Source: [Archangium] primigenium
GTDB lineage: Bacteria > Myxococcota > Myxococcia > Myxococcales > Myxococcaceae
Assembly: GCF_016904885.1 (NCBI RefSeq)
Contig: NZ_JADWYI010000001.1
Span: 7,305,224-7,369,223 of the forward strand
DNA: 64,000 nucleotides
Direction: 5' to 3'
The notes beneath the pieces are model-generated. The model searched no databases. It was not told the origin of the DNA and was given only the letters and a program-made list of their open reading frames with translations. How positions within the stretch are numbered: position 1 is the first letter of the stretch; every line of letters starts with the position of its first letter. The position numbers and the translations under genes were made by a program. Shown one piece after another: positions 3,113-61,828 of this stretch.

Positions 3113-3394
3113 TCGTAGAATCCCGCCTGCCCCCCGGCACACGGGAACCCGGAGGCGGAGGGGCCACGCACGTGGTCCACCACACCCGGGAGCGGGTCGC
3201 CACCGCACGAGCCCCCTCGTCCGGAACGGCCTTCCTTTGTTCTGGAACGCACCCTCTCACGGCCCCCCGCCGCCGCGCTGTGAAGCCCTTCACTCGATTC
3301 CTGTGAGGTGCGTCACCCCCGCTGTCACCCTCCGTGCGGCCCCGCCTCCACTCCGCCCTTCGGGGACCGGGGCGGCTGCGCTAGCGTGCCCGCC

Positions 3395-5626: not shown

Positions 5627-7042
5627 CTAGTCGACCTTCTTCATCTCCTCCACGAAGGGACGGGCCTTGAGAAAGCCCGTCACCCGCGGCGCGCGCAGGC
5701 TCTCGCCCTTGGACGAGACGAACGCCACCGTGGGCAGGCCCTCCACCTCGAAGCGCTCCATCAGCGCGTCCAGGGCGTCGCTCGCCCGCGTGGCGTCCAC
5801 CTTCACGTTGAGGAAGCGCTCGGACTCGGAGATGACCTCCCCGGCCGGGTACGTCTCCCGGTCCAGCTCCTTGCAGGCCGCGCACCAGTCCGCGAAGAAG
5901 TCGATCATCACCGGCTTGCCCTCGCTCCGGGCGCGCACGAGCAACTGCTCGAAGGCCTCGGGGGAGAACTCCTGGCCGTGCGCGGGCAGCACCGCGCTCC
6001 AGGCGAACGTGGGCGCCCGGGCCGGCTCGGCCCACCCGAGCTTCACCCAGAGCTCGCCCGCGCCCTTCTCGTCCAGGGCCCCACCGCGCAGGACGAGCGC
6101 CAGCACCACCAGCGACACCCCGAAGGTCTTGAAGGTGAAGTCCCGGGGCCCCTCCTTGAAGGACAGGTGGATGGCGCCCAGCACCACGCCCAGGCCCGCG
6201 AGCCCCGCGGCCAGGACGGTGCCCGGCGTCTGGCCCACCTGCGCGAGCACGCCCTTGAGCGCCCCGCCCACCGCCGGGAACGCGTCCTTGAGGTAATTGA
6301 AGGCGAGCGCCACCAGGACGATGCCCAGCACGCTCTTCACCCACTCCATCCACACCCCGCTGCGCGGCAGGCGCACGGTGAAGACGCCAATGAGGAAGAA
6401 GGGCACGCCGATGCCCAGCGCGTAGACGAAGAGCAGCGCCGCGCCGAGCCCGGTGCTCTGCGACTTGGCCACGAAGGCGAGCAGCCCCGTGAGCACGGGC
6501 CCGGTGCACGGCGCCGCGAGGAAGCCGGACACGCTGCCCATGAGGAAGGCGCCCGTCACGCCCGAGCCACCCACCGTGGTGAGCCGCTCCTGCACGGCGC
6601 TCGGCAGCGCCAGCTCGAAGGCGCCGAACATGGAGCACGCCAGCGCCAGGAGGAACACCGCGAGCCCCGTCACCACCACGGGACTGCCCAAGAGCGAGCC
6701 GAAGGCCTGGCCCGTCTTGGCCGCCAGCACGCCCAGGGCGCTGAACACCACGCCCATGCCGACGATGTAGGCGCTCGTCAGCAGCAGCGCCTTGCCCCGG
6801 CCCTCCGCCTGCCGCGCGCCGAAGACGGACACGGTGATGGGGATGAGCGGATAGACGCACGGCGTCATCGCGGTGAGCAGGCCGCCGGCGAACACCACCG
6901 CCGCGCCCAGCGCCAGACTGCCCGACTCCAGGAAGCGCGCCGCGTCCAGCCCCGCGCTCGGCCCGGTGGGCACCAGCCAGGGAATGACCGCCACGCCCAG
7001 GGCCATCACCGCCGCGAGGCCCACCTTCTTCTTCGTGTCCAT
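5627..7042 (-). CDS. thiol:disulfide interchange protein, CcdA-like membrane domain fused to C-terminal thioredoxin (DsbD beta+gamma-like)
   Basis: Multiple TM segments with paired Cys (MTPCVYPLIPI, LAAPCTGPVL) and a C-terminal thioredoxin fold with a WCAAC motif (FFADWCAACKELD). Start taken at MDTKKK. Confidence 0.7.
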   Translation of the reverse strand: MDTKKKVGLAAVMALGVAVIPWLVPTGPSAGLDAARFLESGSLALGAAVVFAGGLLTAMTPCVYPLIPITVSVFGARQAEGRGKALLLTSAYIVGMGVVFSALGVLAAKTGQAFGSLLGSPVVVTGLAVFLLALACSMFGAFELALPSAVQERLTTVGGSGVTGAFLMGSVSGFLAAPCTGPVLTGLLAFVAKSQSTGLGAALLFVYALGIGVPFFLIGVFTVRLPRSGVWMEWVKSVLGIVLVALAFNYLKDAFPAVGGALKGVLAQVGQTPGTVLAAGLAGLGVVLGAIHLSFKEGPRDFTFKTFGVSLVVLALVLRGGALDEKGAGELWVKLGWAEPARAPTFAWSAVLPAHGQEFSPEAFEQLLVRARSEGKPVMIDFFADWCAACKELDRETYPAGEVISESERFLNVKVDATRASDALDALMERFEVEGLPTVAFVSSKGESLRAPRVTGFLKARPFVEEMKKVD

Positions 7043-8163: not shown

Positions 8164-9395
8164 CGAACGTCGAGTGGCGTTGGAAGTCGGGCTGGTCGGA
8201 CCCGGAGCTGCTGTCCCGACTGGGCCGGGCCACCACCCTCCCCCTCAACTTCGAGGGCGAGGAGAAGGGCATGACGGCCGAGAACGGCTGGAGCGTGGTG
8301 GAGTCCCAGGCCGTCATCGGCGTGGACAAGCCGGGCCCGCCCAAGGGGGAGGACGGCTTCGCGCTGCTCAAGCACGCGGTGACGGAGCTGGGCTTCTCCG
8401 ATCCGCGCATCGTGCGTGGCCACTTCGACAGCGCCATGCCCCTGCTCGGCCGCCCCATGCTGTTGGAGCTGCGCCCGCTGCGCTTCCTGCGCTACCTGTG
8501 TCCGGTGCGCGTGCGGGCCGTGCGCTCCGAGCAGGACGAGACCCACACGGCCTACGGCTTCAGCATCGACACGCTCGCCGGGCACGTGGAGTCGGGCCGG
8601 GAGTGGTTCCTGTTGAGCAAGGACCACCGCACGGGTGAGCTGCGCTTCCACATCCGGGCCACGTGGCGCGAGGGCGAGTTCCCCAACTGGTGGAGCGCGG
8701 TGGGCTTCGAGGTGATGGGCCGCCGCTACCAGCGCGCCTGGCACCACCTGGCGCACCTGCGCCTGCGCGAGCTGCTCGCCAAGGGCCACCTGGCGGCGCA
8801 CCCCTCGGGCGAGACGATGCAGGACACGCCGCTGGAGGTGAGCCGGCTGCCGGTGCAGTTCCACTCGCAGCGCGGCATGAGCCGGGCGCTGGCGAAGGTG
8901 GAGCACGAGGCGGAGAGCGAGCGGGGCCAGGACTGGCTGACGACGGTGGGCTTCGGGGTGCTCGCGGGCATGCGGAGCATGAGCGCGCCGGCGGTGCTCG
9001 CCTACCAGTACTCGGTGGAGCCCAAGGCGGTGCCCGGAGGCTGGGGCGAGCGGGTGCCGTGGAAGAAGACGGCGGCGGTGCTGGGCGTGCTGGCCGCGGG
9101 CGAGCTCGTGGCGGACAAGACGCCGTGGATTCCCGCGCGCATCGCGCCGCCGGCGCTGCTGGGCCGGGTGCTGTCGGGCGCGCTGACGGGCGCGGCGGTG
9201 GCGGCGCCGGGCCGCAAGCTGTCGCCGACCCGCGCGGTGGTGGGCGCCACGGCGGCGGTGGTCGCGACGCTGGGCTTCTACACCCTGCGCCGCTTCGCCA
9301 CGCGCCGCCTGGGCGTGCCCAACGTGGTGGCGGGCCTCATCGAGGACGCCGCGGCCGCCGCGATGGGCGGTAAGCTCTTCGCCTCGCTGCGCTGA
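8160..9395 (+). CDS. fusion protein: DUF1990-like N-terminal domain + DUF4126-like C-terminal membrane domain
   Basis: The N-terminal half resembles the upstream DUF1990 protein (GHFDSAMPLLGRPMLLELRP..., ELRFHIRATWREGEFPNWW). The C-terminal 150 aa are hydrophobic and Gly/Ala-rich (TAAVLGVLAAGELVADKTPWIP...), DUF4126-like. Confidence 0.5.
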   Translation: MTNVEWRWKSGWSDPELLSRLGRATTLPLNFEGEEKGMTAENGWSVVESQAVIGVDKPGPPKGEDGFALLKHAVTELGFSDPRIVRGHFDSAMPLLGRPMLLELRPLRFLRYLCPVRVRAVRSEQDETHTAYGFSIDTLAGHVESGREWFLLSKDHRTGELRFHIRATWREGEFPNWWSAVGFEVMGRRYQRAWHHLAHLRLRELLAKGHLAAHPSGETMQDTPLEVSRLPVQFHSQRGMSRALAKVEHEAESERGQDWLTTVGFGVLAGMRSMSAPAVLAYQYSVEPKAVPGGWGERVPWKKTAAVLGVLAAGELVADKTPWIPARIAPPALLGRVLSGALTGAAVAAPGRKLSPTRAVVGATAAVVATLGFYTLRRFATRRLGVPNVVAGLIEDAAAAAMGGKLFASLR

Positions 9396-9401
9396 ACCCG
9401 C

Positions 9402-9734: not shown

Positions 9735-9797
9735 TTCCGCATGGAGGCCGCCGCGGATGCCGCGCTCGGCGGCGGGCTGTTCGCCTCGCTGCGCTGA
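9735..9797 (+). pseudogene. orphan 3'-end fragment (copy B) of the DUF4126-gene terminus
   Basis: In-frame MEAAADAALGGGLFASLR-stop closely matches the real gene end ...EDAAAAAMGGKLFASLR-stop at 9340..9395, including the nucleotide string ttcgcctcgctgcgctga. Confidence 0.5.
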
Positions 9798-9821
9798 GCG
9801 CGGCGCGGTCCGCCCCGGGCC

Positions 9822-10764: not shown

Positions 10765-11493
10765 TCAAGGACAGGAACGACCCCTGATGGCTGGAAAGCG
10801 CACATAGGCGAGACGGAGCGCGTCCAGATGCCGGGGGTTGTCCAGGTCCAGGGGCTCTTCCGTGAGGGGCACCACCCAGCCGCCCGAGGCCGTGCGCCGC
10901 GAGCGCGCGAGCAGTAGCCCGTCTCGCGAGAGGTCGGGAAACCCCAGGAGTTGGGCGGTGGCGGCCGACCAGTAGTTCACCCATCCCAGGCGGTACGGAA
11001 TCAAGGGGGAGTCGAATTCGTCCGGGGGCTTGAGCAGGGGAAGTCCAAGCGGCGGCGTATGGGGCGCGGAGAACGGATGCCAGACTTGCTCCGCGACCAT
11101 GAGCACCACGGCACTGGGGCTCATGTCTCCCCACCAGCCGCGAGCGGCTTCACCCACCCCCTCCAACGTGCCCACCGCCGCCCGAATGGCTTGTGATTCC
11201 AATGGCAATTTCCCATGGATGCTCAGCGCGGACTGACCCGCCGGAGAAACAGCGTCTCTTGGGATTCCGTAAACCATCACCGGGTAAGACTCGTCACCAT
11301 TGCAGACGAGCGGAAAATCGCCACGCGCGACCGCCTCGGAAAACCATTGCTCGCGCCGTGGCAATTTCAGGAGTTGTCCGTCCTCGGTAACATCCCAGAC
11401 CAGGTGAAGCCCAGGGAAGGAGTGCTCCATGGCCTGGACCACGGCCAGAGGGCGACCATCACCTCTTTCAAGGGGGGTCGTGAAAACAGTCAT
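10765..11493 (-). CDS. hypothetical protein (GC about 62%)
   Basis: Start at MTVFTTPLERGDG. No domain recognised. Lower GC than the core genome. Confidence 0.4.
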   Translation of the reverse strand: MTVFTTPLERGDGRPLAVVQAMEHSFPGLHLVWDVTEDGQLLKLPRREQWFSEAVARGDFPLVCNGDESYPVMVYGIPRDAVSPAGQSALSIHGKLPLESQAIRAAVGTLEGVGEAARGWWGDMSPSAVVLMVAEQVWHPFSAPHTPPLGLPLLKPPDEFDSPLIPYRLGWVNYWSAATAQLLGFPDLSRDGLLLARSRRTASGGWVVPLTEEPLDLDNPRHLDALRLAYVRFPAIRGRSCP

Positions 11494-11559
11494 GACCAAC
11501 TGGTCGCTCGCGCTTGGCATTTCAGCACCCTGTCACAACGACCTTCAAGGTGGCATCTT

Positions 11560-11800
11560 CTTTGAGCAATGCTTCTCGGTGCGAGGCATGACGGATCCCC
11601 ACCACGAGTTGGTAACCACAGGCACCAAGCCCATGGCCCATCCACCTCTATCACGTGCACCTCGCCCATCTTGTGCTGGAAGGCCGCCGCCACCGGCGGC
11701 AGTTGTCGCGCCAGCACCAGTCGGATGAACTCGGGCGACGCCGCGATGCCAGCGTCTGCCGCTCGAGCAGCGGCGTCTCCGCCCGCGGGACCATCGTCCA
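11560..11800 (-). pseudogene. diverged 3'-proximal fragment of a flotillin-family gene
   Basis: Minus-strand translation PEFIRLVLARQLPPVAAAFQHKMGEVHVIEVDG aligns with the C-terminal region of the intact flotillin gene (PESIQLVLAQQLPQVAAAFQQKMGEVHVTAVDG). Nucleotides 11650-11760 align with 14280-14390. Confidence 0.5.
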
Positions 11801-11955
11801 CCGCGCGTGAGCCACCCGCGCGACCTCCACCTTCTGCCGCAGCCACATCCGCGCCAGCGTGCCCTTGGCTGCGCCGCCGCCACGGCCCGCCCAACGTGAG
11901 GGCGAACTTTATGGTGACACCTCCGCGGCCGCGATCGGCGGCAAGCTGTTCGCCT
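11800..11955 (+). pseudogene. orphan 3'-end fragment (copy C) of the DUF4126-gene terminus
   Basis: ...cccaacgtg...gcggccgcgatcggcggcaagctgttcgcctcgcggtgctga aligns with 9290..9395 (...GVPNVVAGLIEDAAAAAMGGKLFASLR-stop). Confidence 0.5.
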
Positions 11956-12841
11956 CGCGGTGCTGAACGTGGCACGGTCCGCCCCCAAGGCCCGGGGCGG
12001 ACCGAGGTCCCGGCTAAGGATCGACCGATGTCGGCGGCCTGGGGGATTCTCGCACGGGGACGTAGCAGCGCCCCTGGTGTTCGTAGAACTGGCCACACGG
12101 AGGACGCCGCTCCATGCGGCTCCAGCACCCTCCGTTGATCTCCTCGTCACCTGTCGACGCCGGAAGACAGGGAGATGCCTGCTGTTTCTCTAGGCGCTTG
12201 GGCGGCATGGGCACCGCGATGGTGCCGCCGTCACGCGACAGCCAGTCGGTGGCGATGGACTCGAACTCGGGCCGCTCCGGTGCAGCATCCATGCGGATGG
12301 GCTTGGGATGCGGCGCGAGCAGGCCCCACAGAGCGATGCCCACGGCCAGAACCCCCAGCGCACGTGGGGGCCACGTGGCGGGGACGTCCCACGTCGACCA
12401 AGCCTTCCGCTCTCGACGGGGATTGAGTCGCGACACCACACGCAAAGCCACGAGGAGGGGAATCGTACTGCCCGTACTCCGTGCGCACGCGATGGAAAAA
12501 AGGAGGATTTTCAGCCTGCGGAATCCGTGATGCCTGGCACCAATGAAGATCCGGGCCCATTGCCGCCGTTTCTTGAGGGTCATTCAGGGGAAACTACTTA
12601 CTGCGTCGTGCACGATTGCGTCCACAGTCCAGGGCCGCGGACGCAGCCGCTCGACGTCAAATAAGTAGCCAGGCGTGCTTGCCTTGAAATCTACGCCCGA
12701 CTGACCTTGTCGATTGAAGCCCTCGTTCCGATTCACCCCAGGAACGGATGGAGCGGAAGCCACTGCGGACTCGCCGTTCCAACCGTCATTGGAGTGCGCC
12801 AGCACGGTAAGGCGCGTCATGGCCACCGCCTGCCTGGGTGG

Positions 12842-14026
12842 TCAGTAGTCGTAAAAGTAGAACGCCGCGATGTCCGCCTTGCCGTCACCCGTGAAATCCC
12901 CTGCCACCGGCCGACCTCTGTTCCAGTCCCATTGGCCCAGCCCACTCAACCACGGTCGGGAGAGTGAAAACGCACCTGTCCCCGTCGCGGTGAACAACCA
13001 GAGGCCCGTGTTCGCGTTGCCGTAGTTGTAGAACGCCGCGATGTCCGCCTTGCCATCGCCCGTGAAGTCACCGGCGACGGGAGAGGCGTTTTTCCATATC
13101 CAATTACCCGGGCCACTCAACCACGGCCGGGAGAGGGAAAACGCACCCGTCCCCGTCGCGGTGAACAACCAGAGGCCCGTGTTCGCGTTGCCATAGTCGT
13201 AGAACGCCGCGATGTCGGCCCTGCCATCGCCCGTGAAGTCACCGGCGACGGGAGAGGCGTTTTTCCATATCCAATTACCCGGGCCACTCAACCACGGCCG
13301 GGAGAGGGAAAACGTGCCCGTCTCCGTCTGAGTGAACAACCAGAGGCCCGTGTTCGCGTTGCCGTAGTCGTAGAATGCCGCGATGTCGGTCCTCCCATCG
13401 CCCGTGAAGTCGCCGGCGACCAGTTGGCACTGACTCCAGATCCAGTTCCCAGGGCCACTCGTCCAGACCAGGGACGCAGAGAAGGACCCTTTACCCGTCG
13501 CCCGGAAGATCCAGAGGCCCGTGTTCGCGTTGCCATAATCGTAGAACGCCGCGATGTCTTCCTTCCCATCACCCGTGAAATCACCAGAGACCAGCTTGGT
13601 TCTGTCCCACGCCCAACCGCCAGCACCGCTCTTCCAAAGCAGCGAAGGAGAGAAAGCGCCTGATTCTGTCGCGGTGAGCAGCCAGAGGCCTGTGTTCGCG
13701 TTGCCATAATCATAGAACGCCGCGATGTCGGCCTGACGATCGTTCGAGAAGAGGCCCGCCACCTCCTTGCTCGCGGCCCAGGCCCAATTTCCCGCACCAC
13801 TCCACCAAGCGGAGTAAGGAGAGGAGAAACCTGATCCCGTCGAAGGGAACATCCAGACTCGGGTATTGGCCGTCGCAGCGGAAACGTGTTCATGAGGAAC
13901 CGTCTCGACCGCGGCTGCTCCAGCAGGGCTTGGTAGGAAAAAAAGGCCTCCCAGAACAAACACCGAGAATGCCCTGCGCCCATGACTCCAGAGGAACAGC
14001 GGACTCGAATCACTCGTCCTGGCCAT
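12842..14026 (-). CDS. secreted FG-GAP/VCBS-like repeat beta-propeller protein
   Basis: Signal peptide (RRAFSVFVLGGLFFLPSPAGAAA) followed by at least six tandem 57-aa repeats, each with GDFTGDGKADIAAFYDYGNANTGLW. Start choice (MARTSDSS) is tentative. Confidence 0.6.
   Translation of the reverse strand: MARTSDSSPLFLWSHGRRAFSVFVLGGLFFLPSPAGAAAVETVPHEHVSAATANTRVWMFPSTGSGFSSPYSAWWSGAGNWAWAASKEVAGLFSNDRQADIAAFYDYGNANTGLWLLTATESGAFSPSLLWKSGAGGWAWDRTKLVSGDFTGDGKEDIAAFYDYGNANTGLWIFRATGKGSFSASLVWTSGPGNWIWSQCQLVAGDFTGDGRTDIAAFYDYGNANTGLWLFTQTETGTFSLSRPWLSGPGNWIWKNASPVAGDFTGDGRADIAAFYDYGNANTGLWLFTATGTGAFSLSRPWLSGPGNWIWKNASPVAGDFTGDGKADIAAFYNYGNANTGLWLFTATGTGAFSLSRPWLSGLGQWDWNRGRPVAGDFTGDGKADIAAFYFYDY
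12850..13900 (-). repeat. 171-bp tandem coding repeats inside the FG-GAP gene
   Basis: Adjacent units are near-identical at the DNA level. Units at about 13010-13180 and 13181-13350 share blocks of about 95 identical nt. Confidence 0.7.
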
Positions 14027-14179
14027 CACGAACCCTCCACGACAACAGTGCTCTCCTGTCCGTACCAACAGGAGGGAGCGCGCTGGACTTGCCTGCACAA
14101 CACCAAAACCCACACACTCCGTGTGGCCTGGCTATCTGGCAGGCAGGCAAGTTTCTGTCGTGTCACACCAGACGGTCGC

Positions 14180-15832
14180 TCACCCCTTCTTCTCCGGCAC
14201 CTGGAGGCCCGCCGAGCGCGCCAGACCCATGACGCCCTCCACCGCCGCGGCGATGTAGCCAAAGGGATTGGCCCCATCCACCGCCGTCACGTGCACCTCG
14301 CCCATCTTCTGCTGGAAGGCCGCCGCCACCTGCGGCAACTGCTGCGCCAGCACCAGCTGGATGGACTCGGGCGACAGCGTGTTGTCGATCTCCTTGAGCG
14401 CCTTGGCCCGCGCCAGCTCCGGCTCCTGCGCCATGCGCGCCTTGCGCGCGTCCATCTCCGCCAGCGACAGCTCCGCCTCGGCGATGGCGCACCGGGCCTC
14501 CGCCGCCCGCGCCTGCGAGCGCGCCCGCTCCTCCTCCTGGTGCAGCTCCGCCATGCGCGACTCGTGCCGCGACGCCAGCGCCTGCCGCTCGAGCAACAGC
14601 GCCTCCGCCTCCGCCTGCGCCTGGAGCGCCTTCATCCGCCGCTCGTGCTCCACCCGCGTGGCCTCCGCCTCCTGCTCCAGCTGCATCCGCTCCAGCGCGC
14701 CCTTGGCCTGCGCCGCCGCCAGGGCCCGCTCGTTCTCCTGCTGCGCCTCCGCCATGCGCCGCTCGGACTCCAGCCGCGTCAGCGTCTGCGCCTCCTCCGA
14801 GCGCGCCTTCTGCTCGCGCACCTCGCGCTCGGCGTTGAGCTTCGCCAGGGCCACCTCGCGCTCCAGGGACACCTGCGCCTGCCGCGTGCCCCGCTCCTTG
14901 GCCACCCGCGCCTCCTCCACGCGCGACTCCACCGCCAGGGACTCGAGCTTCGCCTGCTCCTCGGCCTCCTGCCGCTTCTGGCGGACCTCCTCCTCCGTCG
15001 CCAGGCGCGTGAGGGAGATCTGCCGCTCCACCTCCGCCTCCTCGCGGCGGATGAAGCGCTCCTTGGCCAATTCCGCCTCGCGCGCCACCCGCTCCTGCTC
15101 CTGGCGGTAGCGCGCCTGCATGTTCGCGAACACCACCTCCGACAGCACCCGCACGTCCTGAATCTCAATCGTGTCCAGGACCACGCCCCAGCCCGTGTCC
15201 GCGCGGTCCTCCAGCCGCCCCCGCCCCGACACCACCGGGGCGATCTCCCGCATCAGCTCCTCGGCCAGGCCCTCCTTGCGCCGCGTGAGGCACTCCTCCA
15301 CGGTGAGGTTGGCCACCAGGCGCCGCACCGCGCCCACGAACATCTCCCCGAGCAGCTCGGCCAGCTTCTGCTGCGCCCGCTCGGGAAAGGAGAAGTTGAG
15401 CATCCGGAAGGCCACCAACGGGTCGACGATCCGGTAGACCGCCAGCCCCGTCACCTGCACGCCGACCTTCTCGCTCGTCACCTGATCCGCCGTGAAGCGC
15501 AGCCGCTGCACGCTCGTGGGCACGATGGCCACCGCGTCCCCGGGCAGCTTGAAGCAGGAGGCGCCCTGCCCGCTCACCTCGCGCACCCGGCCCCGGCGCA
15601 TGTGGATGAGGAACTCGCTCGGGCGGGCGGTGATGAGGCCCCACTTCTTCATCTTCTCCGGATCCTCCTCCGGCTTGCCGGCCCGCCAACCGTTCGGGTA
15701 GCGCCCCTCGGGCTCCACCCGGGCCAGGTCCTGGCGCACCTCGTTGCGCGGCAGGGGCGGCGGCTCTCCCACCGACACCGCCAGGGAACCCGCCGCGTTC
15801 ACCTTCACCATCCGCTTGTCGTTCGTGCTCAT
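14180..15832 (-). CDS. flotillin/SPFH (band 7) family protein with long coiled-coil
   Basis: SPFH domain (GLAVYRIVDPLVAFRMLNFSFPERAQQKLAELLGEMFVGAVRRLVANLTVEECLTRRKE). About 250 aa of Ala/Glu/Arg-rich coiled coil and a conserved flotillin C-terminus. Start at MSTNDKRMVKV. Confidence 0.7.
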   Translation of the reverse strand: MSTNDKRMVKVNAAGSLAVSVGEPPPLPRNEVRQDLARVEPEGRYPNGWRAGKPEEDPEKMKKWGLITARPSEFLIHMRRGRVREVSGQGASCFKLPGDAVAIVPTSVQRLRFTADQVTSEKVGVQVTGLAVYRIVDPLVAFRMLNFSFPERAQQKLAELLGEMFVGAVRRLVANLTVEECLTRRKEGLAEELMREIAPVVSGRGRLEDRADTGWGVVLDTIEIQDVRVLSEVVFANMQARYRQEQERVAREAELAKERFIRREEAEVERQISLTRLATEEEVRQKRQEAEEQAKLESLAVESRVEEARVAKERGTRQAQVSLEREVALAKLNAEREVREQKARSEEAQTLTRLESERRMAEAQQENERALAAAQAKGALERMQLEQEAEATRVEHERRMKALQAQAEAEALLLERQALASRHESRMAELHQEEERARSQARAAEARCAIAEAELSLAEMDARKARMAQEPELARAKALKEIDNTLSPESIQLVLAQQLPQVAAAFQQKMGEVHVTAVDGANPFGYIAAAVEGVMGLARSAGLQVPEKKG

Positions 15833-45451: not shown

Positions 45452-45787
45452 ATGGACCCATTCGTGCGGCGCCTCGTGGAGAGGCTCCATGACCCAGCGC
45501 GTCCCCTGTCGCGCAACCGCCACTTCCACACGTTCGACACGCCCGAGGGCCGCCTGGCCCTCAAGGTGTCGAAGCGGCTCAAGAGCCTGCATCAGGACAT
45601 CCTCGCGTGTGTGCGCGAGGGGCGCCGGGCGCGGCTCTTCCGTCACCTCGAGCCCGGAGGCGAGCACCGGCTCGAGCTGCACTTCGAGCGCATCGCCGGC
45701 CGCCGCGTGTCCCACCTCAAGAAGGCCGAGCTGGAGCTGCTCGCCCAGCTGCCAGGCGTGAGCGAGGCCCTCGCGGGCGACCTCTGA
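45452..45787 (+). CDS. hypothetical protein
   Basis: 111-aa ORF with coding-like composition. No domain recognised. Confidence 0.4.
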   Translation: MDPFVRRLVERLHDPARPLSRNRHFHTFDTPEGRLALKVSKRLKSLHQDILACVREGRRARLFRHLEPGGEHRLELHFERIAGRRVSHLKKAELELLAQLPGVSEALAGDL

Positions 45788-45814
45788 AACCCGGCCGAGG
45801 CCCGGGCGCCGCGG

Positions 45815-46072
45815 CTACGGCGCCGAGGGCGTGGCGATGCGCGCGGGCTGGGGAATGCCGGGCATCAAGGGCGTGGGGTTGAGCGCGAGCACGAGCAGGC
45901 TGCGCAGCGCGTCCTTCAAGTCCTCGCCCACGCTGACCGAGCCCGCGGGCGCGTCCTGGAGCTCGGGCGGCACCTCGTGGCCCAGCACCACCACCGGCAG
46001 GCGGATGTCCCAAGCGAGGAAGTGCGCGAGCTTCACCGCCGCCTCGGTGGTGTCGAACAGGAGCGCCCCCAC
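45815..46072 (-). pseudogene. displaced 3' fragment (last 85 codons) of the response-regulator gene
   Basis: 85-aa ORF identical, bar a few residues, to the C-terminus of the 48767..50269 product. It lacks the receiver and DUF4388 domains. Confidence 0.7.
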
Positions 46073-46104
46073 GGCCCCGGAGCTGAAGGGCCGCCACAGG
46101 GGCC
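45815..46104. repeat. left 290-bp direct repeat (duplicate of the response-regulator gene 3' end)
   Basis: About 98.5% identical to 48767..49056. Both copies begin CTACGGCGCCGAGGGCGTGGCG and end GCCGCCACAGGGGCC. Confidence 0.85.
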
Positions 46105-46217
46105 ATAGCCGAAGAGTCTAGCGTCGGGGAAACAACGCCCTCTGACGCATGCCTCCAAATTCCAGCACTAAACTACACCCCAAACAAGCCCACATCCACT
46201 ACTCACCCAAGCAGTAA

Positions 46218-46778
46218 TCACCGCGCACGAGAAAGCACGCGAGCATCAACTGAGTAGAACTCCCATCCCTCGGCTGGACTTGGCCGTAATTTGGAGGGAA
46301 GCACATGCTCCGCCCTCGACAAATGAGAAGGCCCGTCCAGCAACATTAGAACAGGCCCTGGGCCAGCAGGGTTCAACTCCTGCGAAAGCAGCGCATTAAC
46401 CAAAACAACCAACTCCTCAGAGAAACCATCAAAGTCGCGGCCCGCGTCTCTACTCAAGCGACCCGCGATATCTCGATACTGCACACCAAGCTGAACGAAC
46501 AAGTCGAAGAACCACCTTCGATTTGTTCCCCCCAAATCCAACAGAGGGAGAGTTCGAAGGTCCATTACCCAGCGGGGCCGCAAATCACGCAACAGAGAAA
46601 CAAATGGCGCAGCTGGCATCGCAGCCATATCAATAAAACACAACAACTTAGGACTGGACATCAAAAACAACGGCAACTGCAACGGCTCTCGAAAAGAACG
46701 AGGCGAACTCGCCGATACGTCCAATCTCTCAGGAGAAACAATCAGCTTGAGGTGCGAAACGGCATTGCCCCTAGACAT
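46218..46778 (-). CDS. hypothetical protein encoded in the low-GC islet
   Basis: Overlaps or abuts the deaminase gene stop. No recognisable domain. Start is ambiguous (MSRGNAV or internal MSSPKLL). Confidence 0.4.
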   Translation of the reverse strand: MSRGNAVSHLKLIVSPERLDVSASSPRSFREPLQLPLFLMSSPKLLCFIDMAAMPAAPFVSLLRDLRPRWVMDLRTLPLLDLGGTNRRWFFDLFVQLGVQYRDIAGRLSRDAGRDFDGFSEELVVLVNALLSQELNPAGPGPVLMLLDGPSHLSRAEHVLPSKLRPSPAEGWEFYSVDARVLSRAR

Positions 46779-48417
46779 TCGAAGGCCCCGGTTCAAGCAG
46801 TTTTGCTTCCATTTCGGCGTGACTCAGTTTGCTAATATCCCAGGCGGATCCCCAATCAGGTTCTCCAATGCTCATCGCGCCATCGTCCTTGCTCTTAAAT
46901 TCCCGGTCTTTAAGGAAGGCACGCCAATAGAGCCGCGGCGCAACACCAGTGAAAGGAAGGAATGGGATTTTCTTCCCTTTTTCATGAGCCCGGTGACTAA
47001 TCGAATCACCATGAAGCTTTAGAGCGCGGCTTTTGGGGTAAGGCTCAATGTATTGAACCTCATCTACTCCAGCACTAACAATATGTCGGGCGCAGTAGTG
47101 ACAAGGATAAGTGGTTACAAACAGTCGACATCCCTGAGGAGAAGCACCCTGGCGCGCGGCACTCAGTAGGGCATCCATCTCGGCATGAACTGCACGACTA
47201 AACTCGATCAATTCTCCGACTGGGGAATTATCTCTAAGTTTGGCTTTAAGCGCGTCACGCTCTGCTGCGCTTAGCGGTTTTTCCTCGTGAATAACTTCGA
47301 GGACTTTCTCAATAATGTCGGCTTGCTCGCGAGTATTACTGCAGTACTTCTCGGGACGAAATGCGCAGCGATTATCGTTCGACGGTGCAATTTCGTCGGA
47401 ATCCTGAGCATACACGCCTCCCCCCGCCCTAGGGACTTCATTTGCTCCTGTCGAAACGATATTACCTGTCGCATCAATCAGGGCGGCCCCAACTTGACGA
47501 GACAAGCACGCGCTACGCATTTGGGCTCCATATGCCGCATGCATAGCCGTCTCGCTTGAAGTTGGTCGCTCAATACTCGATTGCGTAATTATACGCACCA
47601 ATCGAACCAGATGTTCATCTACTCGCCAGTTCGGATTATCTTTAAGCTGCCCCCCATCCTCTAGTTGACGCTCCTCACTATTATCAACAAAGAAGTCCGC
47701 TAGATGGAAGGCGTCCGAGACGCGCTGGCCGTGCTTCTTCTTTTTTGGGTCCTTCTCTTTAGCATCACGTTCCATGAACTTTTTGATGTGGACTTGACCC
47801 GCATCAGTAAATTTCGTCTTTTGCAAACGTTCCAGACGAATGTCTTCTTGACACACAACCCCAACAAGCGCGAATGCGTTCCGATACAAGCTTCGCAGCA
47901 GATGTGCTTCCGCCGGATGCCGTATAGCGTCGATGATGTAAGCGCGAGGTTTTCCATCTGGAAGAACAGCTCCAACGCCAGGGTTTTCTATACGTTGCAT
48001 TCGGGCCCTAGCCAGTCGGATTCTTTCGACCATCGAACGAGCGACAGCAGTAGCATCACTGCTGCGCATCTCATCTCCCCAATCCTGCAGATTGATAGCG
48101 TGCTTTAAATCTGTCTTTTTGGGCTCTTCTGTTAGTTTGCCGCTCCGGCGTGCCCAATCAACAATTACTTCTCGTGCCTTTAGCATCTCAACTTCGTAAC
48201 CCTTTCGGCTCGATAGTAGGTTTTGGAGTGCCTCGGCGATAAACGAGGTTCCTGAGCCGACATGGCCGACGACAGCGAAGACAAGTTCGTTGGACGCGTG
48301 CTCTTTGAACAGCTCTTGAGCGCCGGTACCCGGGCGCCTTCTACTTTGGAGGGACACAACGGTTTCGGCAGCGGACATGACGAAATCGTACCAGATTAAG
48401 ATGCTGGTTTCGGGCAC
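46771..48417 (-). CDS. kinase-like N-domain + CMP/dCMP-type zinc deaminase C-domain protein (dCTP-deaminase antiphage defense family candidate)
   Basis: N-terminal P-loop-like motif VFAVVGHVGSGTSFIAEAL. C-terminal zinc-deaminase motifs HAEMDAL...PCHYCARHIV. 548 aa. Low GC. Confidence 0.6.
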   Translation of the reverse strand: MPETSILIWYDFVMSAAETVVSLQSRRRPGTGAQELFKEHASNELVFAVVGHVGSGTSFIAEALQNLLSSRKGYEVEMLKAREVIVDWARRSGKLTEEPKKTDLKHAINLQDWGDEMRSSDATAVARSMVERIRLARARMQRIENPGVGAVLPDGKPRAYIIDAIRHPAEAHLLRSLYRNAFALVGVVCQEDIRLERLQKTKFTDAGQVHIKKFMERDAKEKDPKKKKHGQRVSDAFHLADFFVDNSEERQLEDGGQLKDNPNWRVDEHLVRLVRIITQSSIERPTSSETAMHAAYGAQMRSACLSRQVGAALIDATGNIVSTGANEVPRAGGGVYAQDSDEIAPSNDNRCAFRPEKYCSNTREQADIIEKVLEVIHEEKPLSAAERDALKAKLRDNSPVGELIEFSRAVHAEMDALLSAARQGASPQGCRLFVTTYPCHYCARHIVSAGVDEVQYIEPYPKSRALKLHGDSISHRAHEKGKKIPFLPFTGVAPRLYWRAFLKDREFKSKDDGAMSIGEPDWGSAWDISKLSHAEMEAKLLEPGPSNV

Positions 48418-48766
48418 ATCGGGGAAGTGCGCATTGAAGCAACGAACTCAACGCTGTCCCGTTCCGAACTCTCCATCAACCAGCGCGATGTAGGAAAAGG
48501 GGATTTGCGAACACACATAAGGCCACAGAACGAGCGAACGAAGTCCCCGAGCGAGACCTAATACTCGAAGAGGTTTCGGGGCTGCATTCTTGATGCCATG
48601 ACCACTCACGCTCTGATTTACGTAAGTCCCCGTAACTACTGTGGATGGAACGTACGCATTGAGCAATTTAGCGTTTTAAGGGGTTAAGCTTCGGGCGGCA
48701 GGCGGACGGATCAGGACAAAGAGCCGGACTCCTACAAATAGATTGAGTCCTATGTGTTCCCATAAA

Positions 48767-49056
48767 CTACGGCGCCGAGGGCGTGGCGATGCGCGCGGGC
48801 TGGGGAATGCCGGGCATCAGGGGCGTGGGGTTGAGCGCGAGCACGAGCAGGCTGCGCAGCGCGTCCTTCAAGTCCTCGCCCACGCTGACCGAGCCCGCGG
48901 GCGCGTCCTGGAGCTCGGGCGGCACCTCGTGGCCCAGCACCACCACCGGCAGGCGGATGTCCCAGGCGAGGAAGTGCGCGAGCTTCACCGCCGCCTCGGT
49001 GGTGTCGAACAGGAGCGCTCCCACCGCCCCGGAGCTGAAGGGCCGCCACAGGGGCC
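48767..49056. repeat. right 290-bp direct repeat (3' end of the intact response-regulator gene)
   Basis: See the left repeat. Confidence 0.85.
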
Positions 49057-50269
49057 GGGCCGCCTCGGCGGGCGGCAGCACGCAGAAGTCCAGGTGCAGC
49101 AGCTCGTTGAGCTCCATGCGGCCGAGCGTGCCGAAGCCGCTGCGCACCGCGGGCGGCTCGGCGGCCACGGCGGCGAGCTCCGCGAGCTGGGAGAGCACCC
49201 GCCGGGCCACGGCCGGGCCGCTGCCACACACGAAGAGCTTCGCGGTGGCCTCGCGCGACACGCCCCGGCCCCGGAGGATGCGGCCGCGCAGCGCGTGCAG
49301 CTCGGCGGGCGCGAGCAGGGGCGCGCTGGTGCCGGCGTCCGCGTCGCCCTCGGCCATGCGCGCCACGCCCTTCTGCAAGAGCGCGTGCAGCACGCCCACC
49401 ACTTCCAGATCCGTGGCGGGCGCCAGGTCCAACACCTCGTTCACGGCCCGGGGCTGGCGCAACAGCTCCACCACCTGCGCCGTCACCGGGTGCTGGTCGC
49501 CCGCCAGGTCCATGTCCGGCGCGAGCACCAGGCGCGTGTGGCGCGGCGGCAGGCCGGGCAGCAGCCGGTTCACCTCGTCCGCCTGGCGCATGGCCTCCAG
49601 CAGCGCGCTGTCCATGGCCCGCTGGATGCGCGGCTTGCCGGAGGTATTGCCGGGCGCGAAGGTGAAGGTGCCCTCGGTCCACACGAGCAGCCGGAACAGG
49701 GCCTTCTCCCCTTCCGCGCGGCCCACCCGGGCGTTGAAGGGGCGACCCTCCACCACGACGATCTCCCCGCGCTCGTTGCCCCGCTCCAGCGTCAGCTTGC
49801 CGCTGCGCTTGTTCATCCCGAGGATCTGCATCAGGTCCGGGATGCTCAGCTGGCTCAGCGAGCCCTCGATCTCCTGGGCCTCGCTCTTGAGATCCTTGGC
49901 CGCGTCGCTGCGGCGGAAGACGTGCTCGATGCGCGAGAGCACCTCGTCCAGGTTGAAGGGCTTGCGCAGGAAGCCATCGCGCAGGCCGCGCATCTTGTCG
50001 GCCTCGAGCTGGCTGGTGGACACCACCACGGGGATGTCGTCCGTGCGCGGGTTGGTGTGCAGGATGTTGATGAAGGTGCGCGCGTCCAGCATCCGGCACG
50101 CCTCGTCGAAGAGGATGAGGTCGGGGTGGCGCAGCACGGCGACCTCCAGCGCGCGCGAGCCGTCCGGCGCGTAGTGCACCTGGTAGCCGCGGGTGCGCAG
50201 GGCGCGCGACAGCGGACGGACGGACTCGAGGTCGGGGTCGGCGATGAGGATTTTTCGGACCTGGGCCAT
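48767..50269 (-). CDS. response regulator with receiver domain + DUF4388 (PatA-like) domain + C-terminal uncharacterised domain
   Basis: Receiver (KILIADPDLESV...DLILFDE...KPF). DUF4388-like segment (LSQLSIPDLMQILGMNKRSGKLTLERGNERGEIVVVEGRPFNARVG). Confidence 0.7.
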   Translation of the reverse strand: MAQVRKILIADPDLESVRPLSRALRTRGYQVHYAPDGSRALEVAVLRHPDLILFDEACRMLDARTFINILHTNPRTDDIPVVVSTSQLEADKMRGLRDGFLRKPFNLDEVLSRIEHVFRRSDAAKDLKSEAQEIEGSLSQLSIPDLMQILGMNKRSGKLTLERGNERGEIVVVEGRPFNARVGRAEGEKALFRLLVWTEGTFTFAPGNTSGKPRIQRAMDSALLEAMRQADEVNRLLPGLPPRHTRLVLAPDMDLAGDQHPVTAQVVELLRQPRAVNEVLDLAPATDLEVVGVLHALLQKGVARMAEGDADAGTSAPLLAPAELHALRGRILRGRGVSREATAKLFVCGSGPAVARRVLSQLAELAAVAAEPPAVRSGFGTLGRMELNELLHLDFCVLPPAEAARPLWRPFSSGAVGALLFDTTEAAVKLAHFLAWDIRLPVVVLGHEVPPELQDAPAGSVSVGEDLKDALRSLLVLALNPTPLMPGIPQPARIATPSAP

Positions 50270-53040: not shown

Positions 53041-56000
53041 TCAGCCGGGCTCCTCGGATTTCGAGGAGGGGGAGGCGGGCGACGATGTTCCCCCCTTGGG
53101 GCGGCGAAGCAACTCATTCTTCACCGCGTTGAGTTCGGCGTTGGCCCGCGCGTAGATATCCTGGACGGAGTCCGGCGCCCGTGCCAGGGCGGTGGGCGGG
53201 GCCTCCAGGGACAAGAGGCGCTCCTCGGCCCGCTCCCGGGCCGCCTGCGCCTCGGCGAGCTCGGTCTTGAGCTGCTCGGACTCGGCGGAGAGCCGGGCCG
53301 TGTCCGCCTCCAGTCGCGCCAGCCGCTCCTCGGCGGCGACCCGCGCCGCGCGCGCCTCCTCCAGCGCCGTCTCGAGCGAGGTGGCCTTGCCCGCGATGCG
53401 CCGGGCCGTCTCCAGCTTCACGGCCAGCAGGTCCTGGTGCTCGCTCTCCGAGGAGAGCTTGGCCTTGGTCTCGACGAGCTGCGTCTGGAGGTCCTCCACC
53501 AGCAACTCGCGCTCGCGCAGGGTCATGTGGGCCTGCTGCAGGGCCATGGAGGCCTGATGGGCCTGGAAGCGGAAGGCCTCCAGCTGGGTGGCGGCCTCGC
53601 GCGCCTGGGTGAGCTCCTCGCGCAGCCCCTCCAGCTCCATGCGCGACTCCACGGCCTCGCGCTTGCGGGCCTCGCGCTCCAGGGTGGTGGCGGCCTCGCG
53701 CGCCTGGGCGGTGGCGAGCGTGTCCCGCTCCGAGGCGAGCCGGACCTCGAGCGACTCGACGAGCTGCCGGAGCACCCCGCGCGACGCCTCCAGCTCCGCC
53801 CGCTCCGACCGGGCGGCCTCCAGCTCGGCGCGCACCGCGGCCAGCACGGACTCGGCCTCCTCACGCTCGGCGGCGAACAGGCCTTCCGTCTCGGCGCGCT
53901 GGCGCCGCTCGGTGTCCAGCTCCGCCTGGAGCCGGGCCAGCGACTCGCGCTCCTCCGCCTGGGCCGTGCCCAGCGCCGCCTCGGCCCGCGCCCGCGTCTC
54001 GCGCTCCACGTCCCACGCGGCGCTCATGGACGCCAGGGAGGTCTCGAGCTCGGCGCGCTGCTTGCGTTCGGTGCCCAGCTCCGCCTGGAGCTTCGCGCGG
54101 GACACCTCGACCCGGGCCTTGCCCGCGCGCTCCGCGTCGAGCTCGGCGCTCCACTCCGCCTGGGCGCGCGCCTGGGCCTCGTCCTTCTCCTCGAGCGCCA
54201 CCTCGAGCGCGGCGCGCCGCCGCTGTTCGGCCGCGAGTTCCTCCTGGAAGATGGACAGGGAGCGGGTGCCGTCGGCGCGCTGCTCGCGCTCGCCCTCCAG
54301 CTCCACGCGCGCCTGGGTCAGCGCGTCCTCGGCGAACACGCGCTGCTCGCGCTCGCCCTCCAGCTCCTCGCGGGCCGCCGCGAGTTGGGACCGCTCGGCG
54401 GCGAGGGCCGCGTCCCGCCCGGCCAACGACGCCTCGGCCTCGGAGCGTCGCAGCCGCTCGGCCTCCAGCGCCTCGTCCTTGCCGGTGAGCGAGGCATCCG
54501 TCTCGGCGAGCCGCAGCCGCTCGGTGTCCCGCTCCGACCGGACGCGGGACAGGGACTGCTCGGCCCGCTCGCGCTGCTCGCGCTCGGCCTCCAGCTCGGA
54601 GCGGGTGCCCGTGAGCGACTCCTCCGCGAACGCGCGCCGCTCGCGCTCGGCCTCGAGCTCCCCCTCGGTGTTCGCCAGGGACACCTCGACGTCCGCGCGC
54701 TGGCGCTGCTCCGCCTCCAGTTCCTGCTGGGTGAGCCCCCACGAGGCCTCGGCGCGGGCCCGGTGCGCGCGCTCGGTGGCCAGCGAGGCCTCCCACGAGG
54801 TCGTGCTCTCGGTGCCGCGCCGCCGCTCGGCCTCCAGCGCCTCACGGGCCTGGGCGAGAGCCTCCTCCGAGCCGCTCCGGGCCCCCTGCTCCGCCTCCAG
54901 CGCGATCCGAAGCTCCGCCAGGGCCTCGTCCACCTGGGCGCGCTGGCGCCGCTCGGCCTCCAGCCCCCGCTGGGCCTCCGCGAGGGCCGCCTCCACCTGG
55001 GCACGCTGCTGCCGGCCCGTCTTCACGACGCCCCGCGTCTCCTCCAGGGCCTCGTCGACCTGGGCACGCTGCTGCCGCTCGGCGTCCAACGTCCCCTGGA
55101 TCTCCAGCAGGGCCGCCTCGACCTGGGCGCGCTGCCGCTGCTCGGCTTCCACCGTGGCCTGGAGCGCGAGCAGGCCCGTATCCCCTTGGGCACGCTGTTG
55201 ACGCTCGGCCTTCAATGCCTCCTGAAGCGCGCGCAGCTCCGCGTCCCGCTGGGCGCGCTGTTGACGCTCTGCCTCCAGCGCCGCCTGGAGTTCGCGCGAG
55301 CCCGCGTCCCCCTGGGTCCGCTGCCGCCGCTCGGCCTCCAGGGCCTCCTGGAGCTCGCGCGCGCCCGCCTCGAGGTGGGCGCGCTGCTGCCGCTCGGCCT
55401 CCAGGGCCTTCTGGAGCTTCGTGCCCTCCTCGAGCGCCAGGAGCCGCCGCTGGTGTTCGGCCTTGGCCTCGGCGCGCACGCGCGCGAGCTGCTCCTGGGC
55501 CTCGGCCATGTGCTGGCGCTCGGTGGTGAGGCCTGCCTGGAGCTGGGTGAACGACGCATCCAGGGCCGCGCGGGCCTCGACCTCCAGGGAGAGCTCCACG
55601 TGGGCCCGGTCCCGCTCCACCTCGGCCTGGAGCCGGGCGTCCCGCTCGGCGGAGATGCCGCCCTGGGTCGCCTGGAGTTCGCCGTCGAGTCGGGCGATGG
55701 ACTCCACGTCCGAGGCGCGCACCCGCTCCAGCTCCGCGAGCGAGGCCTCGACCTCGGCCAGGCGCCGCCGCAGCACGCCGCGCTCGTCCGCCCAGTCCTG
55801 CCGCTGCTCCTTCAAGGCGGCGACGGAGTGCGTGGCCTCCTCGCGCGCGGCCTCCTCCATCCGGAGCTGATGCTCGAGCGCGGCGGCGGCCTGCTCCAGG
55901 GCCTCGCGCGCGGAGCGCTCGCGGGACGCCTCGTCCCGGGCCTCCTGCGTGCGGGCCCGCTCCTCGGTGAGGGCCCGCGCCAGCCGCTGCTCGGCGTGCT

Positions 56001-61050: not shown

Positions 61051-61653
61051 TCAGTTGCCGAACAGCTCGAGCGTCTGAGGCGGCGTGGCCTCGGTGGGCT
61101 CGGCCCGGTGGCACTTGCGGCAGCGCGCCTCGTAGGCGCCGGCCGCGCCCACCACCACGCGCTCGCCGCGATCCACCAGCCGCTGCGAGCGATTGGCGGG
61201 ATTCCCACACACGACGCAGATGGCCAGTTGCTTCGTCACGTACTCGGCGATCGCCAGCAGCTGCGGCATCGGCTCGAAGGGACGGCCCTGATAGTCCTGA
61301 TCCAGCCCGGCCAGGATGACGCGCAGGCCCCTGTGCGCCAGTGCCTCACACACCGCCACCACCTCGCTGCCGAAGAACTGCACCTCGTCGATGCCCACCA
61401 CCTGCGTGTGGGGAGAGAGATGACGGAAAATTTCTTCAGCCCGTTCGATGGGAATGGAGGTCAATTTCAACTGGGAATGGCTGACCACCTGGGTCTCGTC
61501 GTAGCGGTTGTCGATCCTCGGCTTGAAGACCTGGACCGCTTGCTTGCCATAGACGGCGCGCTTGACGCGACGGATGAGTTCTTCCGTTTTTCCGGAGAAC
61601 ATCGACCCGCAGATGACCTCTATCCACCCGATGTCTTTGGGGAATTGGTGCAC
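61051..61653 (-). CDS. tdk: thymidine kinase
   Basis: P-loop GSMFSGKTEELIRR and C-terminal zinc ribbon CVVCG...CRKCH. The start is uncertain. The long upstream frame is unlikely to be translated. Confidence 0.7.
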   Translation of the reverse strand: MHQFPKDIGWIEVICGSMFSGKTEELIRRVKRAVYGKQAVQVFKPRIDNRYDETQVVSHSQLKLTSIPIERAEEIFRHLSPHTQVVGIDEVQFFGSEVVAVCEALAHRGLRVILAGLDQDYQGRPFEPMPQLLAIAEYVTKQLAICVVCGNPANRSQRLVDRGERVVVGAAGAYEARCRKCHRAEPTEATPPQTLELFGN

Positions 61654-61828
61654 GCGAGGAACTCGATCGGGGTGGGGGTTGGAGCGCGGGTCAGCTCTGA
61701 CACGCCCCTCCTGGCACGTCAACTTCCCGCCCCCCGCGACCCGAGGCCCCACACGCGCCGTCCGCCCCCGGCCCCGTGGCAAGCATCTTGAATGACGTTG
61801 CTTCGGGTTCAAACCGGGGAGGTCTTGG

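Follow-up and report, generated by a model that had tools for sequence, protein, structure and literature searches.

We analysed a 64,000-nt stretch of the [Archangium] primigenium genome (contig NZ_JADWYI010000001.1, positions 7,305,224 to 7,369,223 of the forward strand; hereafter the window), in which a 2.66-kb islet of low GC content lies at the 3′ end of a response-regulator (RR) gene. The RR gene (48767..50269, minus strand; WP_204492773, neighbour WP_204492766) is intact and encodes a 500-aa protein with Response_reg and DUF4388 (PATAN-type) domains. Its last 290 nt (48767..49056) recur as a direct repeat at 45815..46104 on the same strand, at a spacing of 2,952 nt. The two copies differ by four substitutions and no indels (98.6% identity, where a preliminary description of this DNA had given about 98.5%), and the window contains no other long repeat of two copies. 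Each copy comprises 95 codons, the TAG stop and 2 nt, so the earlier count of 96 codons plus a few nucleotides was essentially right; both begin, on the plus strand, exactly at the CTA that is the stop of the minus-strand RR gene. The islet itself (46105..48766, 2,662 nt) carries two minus-strand genes, as had been reported. On the far side of the repeat copy that stands apart from the gene, which GenBank annotates as an 85-aa hypothetical protein (WP_204492768), there are a 27-nt spacer (45788..45814) and a conserved 111-aa hypothetical gene on the plus strand (45452..45787), convergent with the RR gene; its product has no match in Pfam or NCBIfam.

The composition of the islet is foreign. 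The drop in GC content noticed earlier between the repeats amounts to 0.518 in the islet versus 0.74 in the repeats and 0.72 in the flanks, and no other stretch of the 64 kb is near 50% GC. The codon usage goes the same way: GC content at third codon positions (GC3) is 0.48 and 0.55 in the two islet genes versus 0.97 in the RR gene. Both ends of the islet are non-coding and of low GC content. At one end, 113 nt (46105..46217; GC 0.52) with no homology to the other cassette loci described below adjoin the junction 46104/46105, where the islet is joined to RR position −290. At the other end, 349 nt (48418..48766; GC 0.51) abut the RR stop directly and presumably contain the promoter of the first islet gene. 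Scans for promoters and terminators yielded no more matches than shuffled sequence did. Neither an integrase nor a transposase is encoded in the islet, in agreement with the preliminary description, and no recombinase or transposase domain was detected in the other lower-GC parts of the window, where the genes at 10–14 kb and 60–63 kb are of DUF5953, FG-GAP, SPFH and thymidine kinase types.

Comparison with related genomes reveals the site without the islet. Close relatives were collected through a 90% protein cluster, and a scan with one genome per species yielded 65 orthologous RR loci. In the genome of Melittangium boletus CP185340.1 (L076), which is 98.1% identical to the window at the nucleotide level over 12.5 kb, an RR gene of the same length as ours is followed, after its stop and 27 nt, by the convergent gene for a 111-aa protein, the very arrangement that had been predicted for an empty site. 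Four further near relatives (L077–L080), namely M. boletus DSM 14713 and three contigs from metagenomes, have the same empty site, as do at least eleven more distant species. The L076 spacer corresponds to the spacer behind the separate repeat copy in the window, with the same length and a near-identical sequence; the protein encoded next to the RR gene in M. boletus is identical to the 111-aa protein of the window, its gene is syntenic in about 40 loci, and in the empty-site relatives the RR stop has this gene as its native right-hand neighbour. The collinearity of spacer and neighbour with L076, together with the intact 500-aa reading frame at the islet's opposite end, bears out the earlier proposal that the left copy is a displaced gene tail and the right copy completes the gene. 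Across the 65 loci the order of genes is conserved (GGDEF regulator, RR-DUF4388 gene, a gap, the convergent 111-aa gene and a TPR gene), and in 11 of them, from more distant species, the distance from the RR stop to the 111-aa gene is −4 to 91 nt.

Neither of the two islet genes nor the duplicated RR tail was found at any of ~70 related loci (the 65 orthologous loci plus the near relatives), which speaks against the old duplication, fixed in all relatives, that had been considered as a contrary outcome; the tail duplication is also absent from four other sites that carry the two genes. Since the near relatives have the empty site, the insertion would be specific to this lineage and younger than the divergence from L076, unless all the others have lost it. 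That only a single genome carries the structure would also be expected of an assembly or consensus artefact, a false duplication placed around a real insertion. The [Archangium] primigenium genome was assembled with HGAP from PacBio long reads (PMC8307915). These reads are longer than the 3.2-kb structure; moreover, the two copies differ by substitutions and not by indels, both junctions give coherent reading frames, including the intact 500-aa gene, and the left junction coincides with the native spacer. We therefore regard an artefact as very improbable.

The four differences between the repeats, at repeat positions 32, 38, 92 and 237, are all synonymous, and the protein sequence of the tail is the same in both copies. 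If both copies had been free of constraint, the probability that all four are synonymous is 0.006; it is 0.035 if only the intact copy was constrained. At positions 32, 38 and 237 it is the displaced copy that agrees with L076, at position 92 the intact copy, and seven further differences from L076 are common to both copies. When polarised by L076, three changes fall on the intact tail and one on the displaced tail (P = 0.034, or P = 0.009 when synonymy is also required of the one displaced change). All three states of the intact tail, G, A and C at positions 32, 38 and 237, occur in other alleles of the Melittangium clade. These observations are suggestive of the displaced copy being the resident allele, and of the tail of the intact gene being another allele, shaped under selection in a very close relative and brought in together with the islet. 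They lend support to the attL/attR-like footprint with a surrogate 3′ end that the preliminary description had recognised.

The seven derived states shared by the copies relative to L076 make them each other's closest relatives, as would be expected if the duplication had arisen in situ, by break repair or template switching that copied 290 nt, with no imported tail and with the four differences arising later. Such an event needs no recombinase, and it would fit the fact that no donor arrangement was found. It would, however, leave the displaced copy unconstrained, and that copy should then hold most of the changes, mostly non-synonymous ones, whereas all four are synonymous and three of the four lie on the intact copy (P = 0.035 unpolarised, 0.009–0.034 polarised); the three states on the intact copy moreover match alleles seen in other relatives. 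In addition, we know of no insertion mechanism that yields a target duplication of 290 nt. An in-situ origin thus appears rather improbable to us. We also considered an imported tract extending upstream of the repeat, where the region 49913–48767 shows 2.9% mismatches to L076, above the level further upstream. This was ruled out: the displaced resident tail has diverged from L076 to an equal degree (8 of 290 nt), which indicates a regional effect.

The first islet gene (46771..48417, minus strand) encodes an anti-phage dCTP deaminase of AvcD-like type, 548 aa long from a GTG start at 48417 (the NCBI call is 535 aa from the ATG at 48378). The protein scores 508 bits against the PADLOC dCTPase model and 437.4 bits (cutoff 400) against NCBIfam NF041025, ‘anti-phage dCTP deaminase’, matches the Pfam domain dCMP_cyt_deam_1 and shows 100% identity to a protein that bears the name ‘anti-phage dCTP deaminase [Archangium primigenium]’. 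It has a P-loop-like motif (GHVGSGTS51) and the zinc motifs HAE411 and PCHYC438 (of the forms HxE and PCxxC), which align to those of T4 dCMP deaminase. From its family membership, the enzyme would be predicted to use up dCTP when a phage infects the cell, in the manner of the AvcD and dCTP-deaminase systems; these AvcID or anti-phage dCTP deaminase systems were reportedly described by Hsueh et al. (2022) and Tal et al. (2022). The islet deaminase shares with AvcID the N-terminal P-loop-like region and the dCMP-deaminase domain with HAE and PCxxC. In the described system, AvcD is inhibited by the small RNA AvcI (PMC10511110), while the islet has instead a translationally coupled protein of 186 aa. 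A search for an AvcI-like RNA gave no Rfam match, no upstream conservation among the five cassettes and no excess folding on either strand (z-scores of −0.57 and +0.16 for 48418..48766); a divergent RNA of the AvcI type upstream of the deaminase gene is possible.

The gene for this partner protein (46218..46778, minus strand), which we call ORF192, encodes 186 aa from an ATG at 46778 or 192 aa from a TTG at 46796. The ATG overlaps the stop of the deaminase gene (ATGTCTAG), an arrangement of translational coupling. Searches of Pfam, PADLOC, NCBIfam and PDB sequences gave no match for the protein, which has no recombinase domain or motif either, and GenBank leaves the gene unannotated in A. primigenium as well as in Myxococcus sp. 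RHSTA-1-4 and Corallococcus sp. AB004. A word-indexed search returned two relatives only. By tblastn, ORF192 directly follows the deaminase in all four of the closest cassette loci, and a gene of this type follows the deaminase in seven of the eight loci examined. A profile search of 1.84 billion representatives brought the family to 421 members at E ≤ 1e-3, with the core motif RP.W..DLR..P.fD.G..nR..fF...Y.D..G. Members elsewhere are located at L072 11619-12197, L073 1945-2514, L074 ~11607-12179, L075 ~11066-11629, L084 ~3247-3897, L085 ~4994-5644 and L081 5001-5570.

Many members of the family are proteins of 620–1139 aa in which the domain stands in front of a TIR domain; one member is fused to GNAT and PIN domains and one to DUF2188. 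A stand-alone member is encoded directly upstream of a TIR gene, the sole plasmid match of the family is a TIR protein and no phage matches were found. For two deaminases from metagenomes, only 51% identical to that of the window, a family member is encoded immediately downstream. The relatives are fused to TIR domains and not to DNA-binding or recombinase domains. The most likely role of the partner protein is to regulate the deaminase or to act as its sensor of infection. Structure models were of modest confidence (predicted local distance difference test, pLDDT, of 63–69) and their fold matches were generic. One further member (L083 1144-1650, neighbours to 5676) lies among many small same-strand genes, including those for a Gad2-family (anti-Gabija) protein and an IS605 OrfB. 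Since this run resembles an accessory region of a phage or mobile element, mobile elements may also use the ORF192 family.

The pair of deaminase and ORF192 genes occurs at three other genomic sites: in the bioB–radA interval of two Myxococcus genomes, between a peptidase M16 gene and an aspartate kinase gene in a Corallococcus, and next to a KAP NTPase gene on a short contig. At each of them the GC content of the cassette is below that of the surrounding DNA; in the three loci that come from genome assemblies, it forms a block of 2.4–2.7 kb with 45–58% GC in genomes of about 70% GC. None of these sites has flanking repeats. We looked for conserved cassette termini and rejected them, as nucleotide homology among the cassettes is limited to the two ORFs. 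At the bioB–radA site the cassettes of the two genomes (L072 10001-12197 and L074 10001-12179) are 68% identical at the nucleotide level versus 82–90% in their flanks, which reflects either fast evolution of defence genes or independent acquisition at one hotspot. Because the three other sites lack flanking repeats, the moving unit appears to be the cassette itself, with no fixed attachment site. Metagenome and viral contigs searched for the cargo gave proteins of only 24–51% identity and no donor arrangement.

The preliminary description had left the mechanism of insertion open, rightly in our judgement. The explanation we favour, with confidence that is about evenly balanced, is a homology-driven insertion carried out by host recombination with one illegitimate joint, and not by a dedicated integrase. 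A foreign two-gene cassette of 2.66 kb would have entered the chromosome physically attached to a copy of the RR gene's final 290 nt, taken from a closely related donor of Melittangium type. One exchange, within the 290-nt homology or just upstream of it, would then have joined the imported copy to the resident gene, and the cassette's far end would have been tied to position −290 of the resident RR gene by one non-homologous joint (46104/46105). The topology would be that of a 2,952-bp circle integrating by a Campbell-type single crossover or that of homology-facilitated illegitimate recombination of linear DNA, and the expected outcome would be the regulator gene with an imported tail, the cassette, the displaced resident tail, the native spacer and the neighbour, in this order. 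We favour host recombination because the islet has no recombinase, because the cassette moves elsewhere without repeats, and because the tail is of host type in GC3 and near-identical to the resident tail. The repeat, 290 nt with 98.6% identity, offers RecA sufficient length, and the model requires no recombinase. The contrast between the repeats and the RR gene on the one side and the islet genes on the other in GC and GC3 points to a recent capture of the tail from a gene of host type. We infer that the intact tail is an imported allele, that the joining was the work of host recombination and that the islet can still loop out by way of the 290-nt repeats.

The same footprint could have been left by a site-specific integrative element, decayed or mobilised in trans, of the kind of e14 in icd or of a cis-mobilizable element (CIME), with a surrogate 3′ end at its attP; either the integrase was lost through an internal deletion, with the cassette remaining between attL and attR, or the unit is a satellite moved by an integrase encoded elsewhere. 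CIMEs do keep attL and attR after the loss of integration genes (PMC5704250). The first 31 nt of the repeat are identical in the two copies and all differences lie 3′ of them, as for a crossover at the 5′ edge, and the differences are synonymous, as in icd and icdC. Still, the islet contains no integrase, excisionase or remnant of one, and a low-GC unit of similar size (2.4–2.7 kb) without repeats at three other sites would hardly be the stump of a larger element. The surrogate tail, with its host-type GC3 and only three to four synonymous differences, is not what a long-carried attP should look like, and neither the ~70 RR loci nor the metagenome and viral sequences scanned for the cargo contained a related element with this att. 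We consider an integrative element a possible but tentative explanation.

Several points weigh against a homology-driven insertion of an imported tail as well. Its support consists of four substitutions only, polarised by a single close relative. The seven derived states shared by both copies would mean that the donor was very close or that gene conversion has blurred the picture. The position of all differences 3′ of repeat position 31 is the one that a site-specific crossover at the 5′ edge would give, and has a probability of about 0.11 for a RecA crossover placed uniformly within the repeat; an exchange upstream of the repeat would explain the lack of differences in the first 31 nt equally well. 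Finally, none of the collections searched contained a donor arrangement in which an RR stop is followed directly by the islet.

The architecture is a known one, that of elements that complete a gene with their own 3′ end, and the cargo belongs to a known defence family. In E. coli, the element e14 (and phage 21) is inserted in icd; the copies differ mainly at synonymous sites and are recombined on excision (PMC13626634). Like the islet, e14 is foreign DNA in the 3′ end of a protein gene, with an element-borne end that completes the gene and the original C-terminal fragment displaced (icdC). Yet e14 is about 15 kb long and has its own integrase and excision functions, in contrast to 2.66 kb and no recombinase; and, unlike in e14, the substitute end of the islet is near-identical to that of the host, has host composition and leaves the protein sequence unchanged. 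The CIMEs of streptococci are, similarly to the islet, short islands at a gene 3′ end with attL/attR-type repeats and no genes for integration or transfer (PMC5704250). Their parent integrative and conjugative or integrative and mobilizable elements are recognisable at the same site and their att cores are short, whereas the islet has a 290-nt coding repeat and neither a parent element nor an integrase was found for it.

Campbell-type single crossover is familiar from the integration of suicide plasmids in Myxococcus genetics, and homology-facilitated illegitimate recombination was reportedly described by de Vries and Wackernagel in 2002. Insertions of these types resemble the islet in that the cargo stands between repeats of the homology it carried, in the combination of one homologous exchange with one illegitimate joint and in the lack of a dedicated recombinase. 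They are mainly known from laboratory constructs and transformation experiments, while the islet is a natural defence cassette whose repeat ends at a stop codon. To our knowledge, natural defence cassettes fixed in this way, with the repeat ending exactly at the stop and the gene intact, are not a described class. What is unusual about the islet is the absence of a recombinase from a 2.66-kb unit with 290-nt coding repeats, the host-like substitute tail, and the conserved protein partner in place of an RNA.

The locus thus offers a clean natural case, with an empty-site reference of 98% identity, in which a defence cassette is fixed within a gene's 3′ end without a recombinase, and it bears on the movement of small defence islets between strains of GC-rich soil bacteria. 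It also brings out a family of proteins that matches nothing in Pfam, PADLOC or PDB and numbers at least 421 cluster representatives. As the family accompanies anti-phage dCTP deaminases and also TIR domains, it suggests protein-based control of AvcD-like enzymes, the role that an RNA has in Vibrio. A farther-reaching picture, which we regard as speculative and on balance unlikely, is that the cassette spreads among myxobacteria without a recombinase of its own, on short captured pieces of host genes: RecA would loop out a 2.95-kb circle, and the 290-nt tail would let the RecA of any strain with the RR gene re-insert it with the gene kept intact. Separately, the same picture would make ORF192 a new immune regulatory or sensor domain of dCTP-deaminase and TIR systems that replaces the AvcI RNA.

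The position behind the RR-DUF4388 gene is a region of plasticity in other Myxococcaceae and Archangiaceae. In other genera the gap behind this gene holds 0.4–6.5 kb of assorted genes with no repeats, among them genes for Rhs toxins, for a DACNV sensor-domain protein, and for a UvrA-like ATPase (similar to PADLOC mad3) together with a methyltransferase and a TauD protein. Gap inserts of lower GC content are located at L009 11606-12976, L035 11501-18213 (the same in L041), L042 12030-14855 and L044 12471-17288.

The window contains several further repeats. At 12751–13905, six to seven tandem units of 171 nt (60–92% identity) lie within the gene for a 423-aa FG-GAP repeat protein (12842–14113, minus strand), in a stretch of 61–66% GC that also holds the DUF5953 gene (10765–11520). 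Three short ORF ends (9335–9400, 9737–9802 and 11906–11971) have a common 66-nt C-terminal block (...LFASLR*), and a 112-nt repeat with 86% identity occurs at 11637–11748 and 14273–14384, 2.6 kb apart. The ORF ends and the 112-nt repeat, all in the lower-GC region at 9–15 kb, look like paralogous gene fragments unrelated to the islet. A thymidine kinase gene (61051–61812, minus strand) is situated in a stretch of 65% GC (60–63 kb), flanked by ORFs without Pfam matches. Repeats with a 63-nt period, in up to 16 copies of 60–79% identity, extend over 53850–55560 in a region of 74–77% GC and presumably encode a repetitive coiled-coil-type protein; the orthologue of this gene varies in length from 1431 to 1537 aa in L076–L079.

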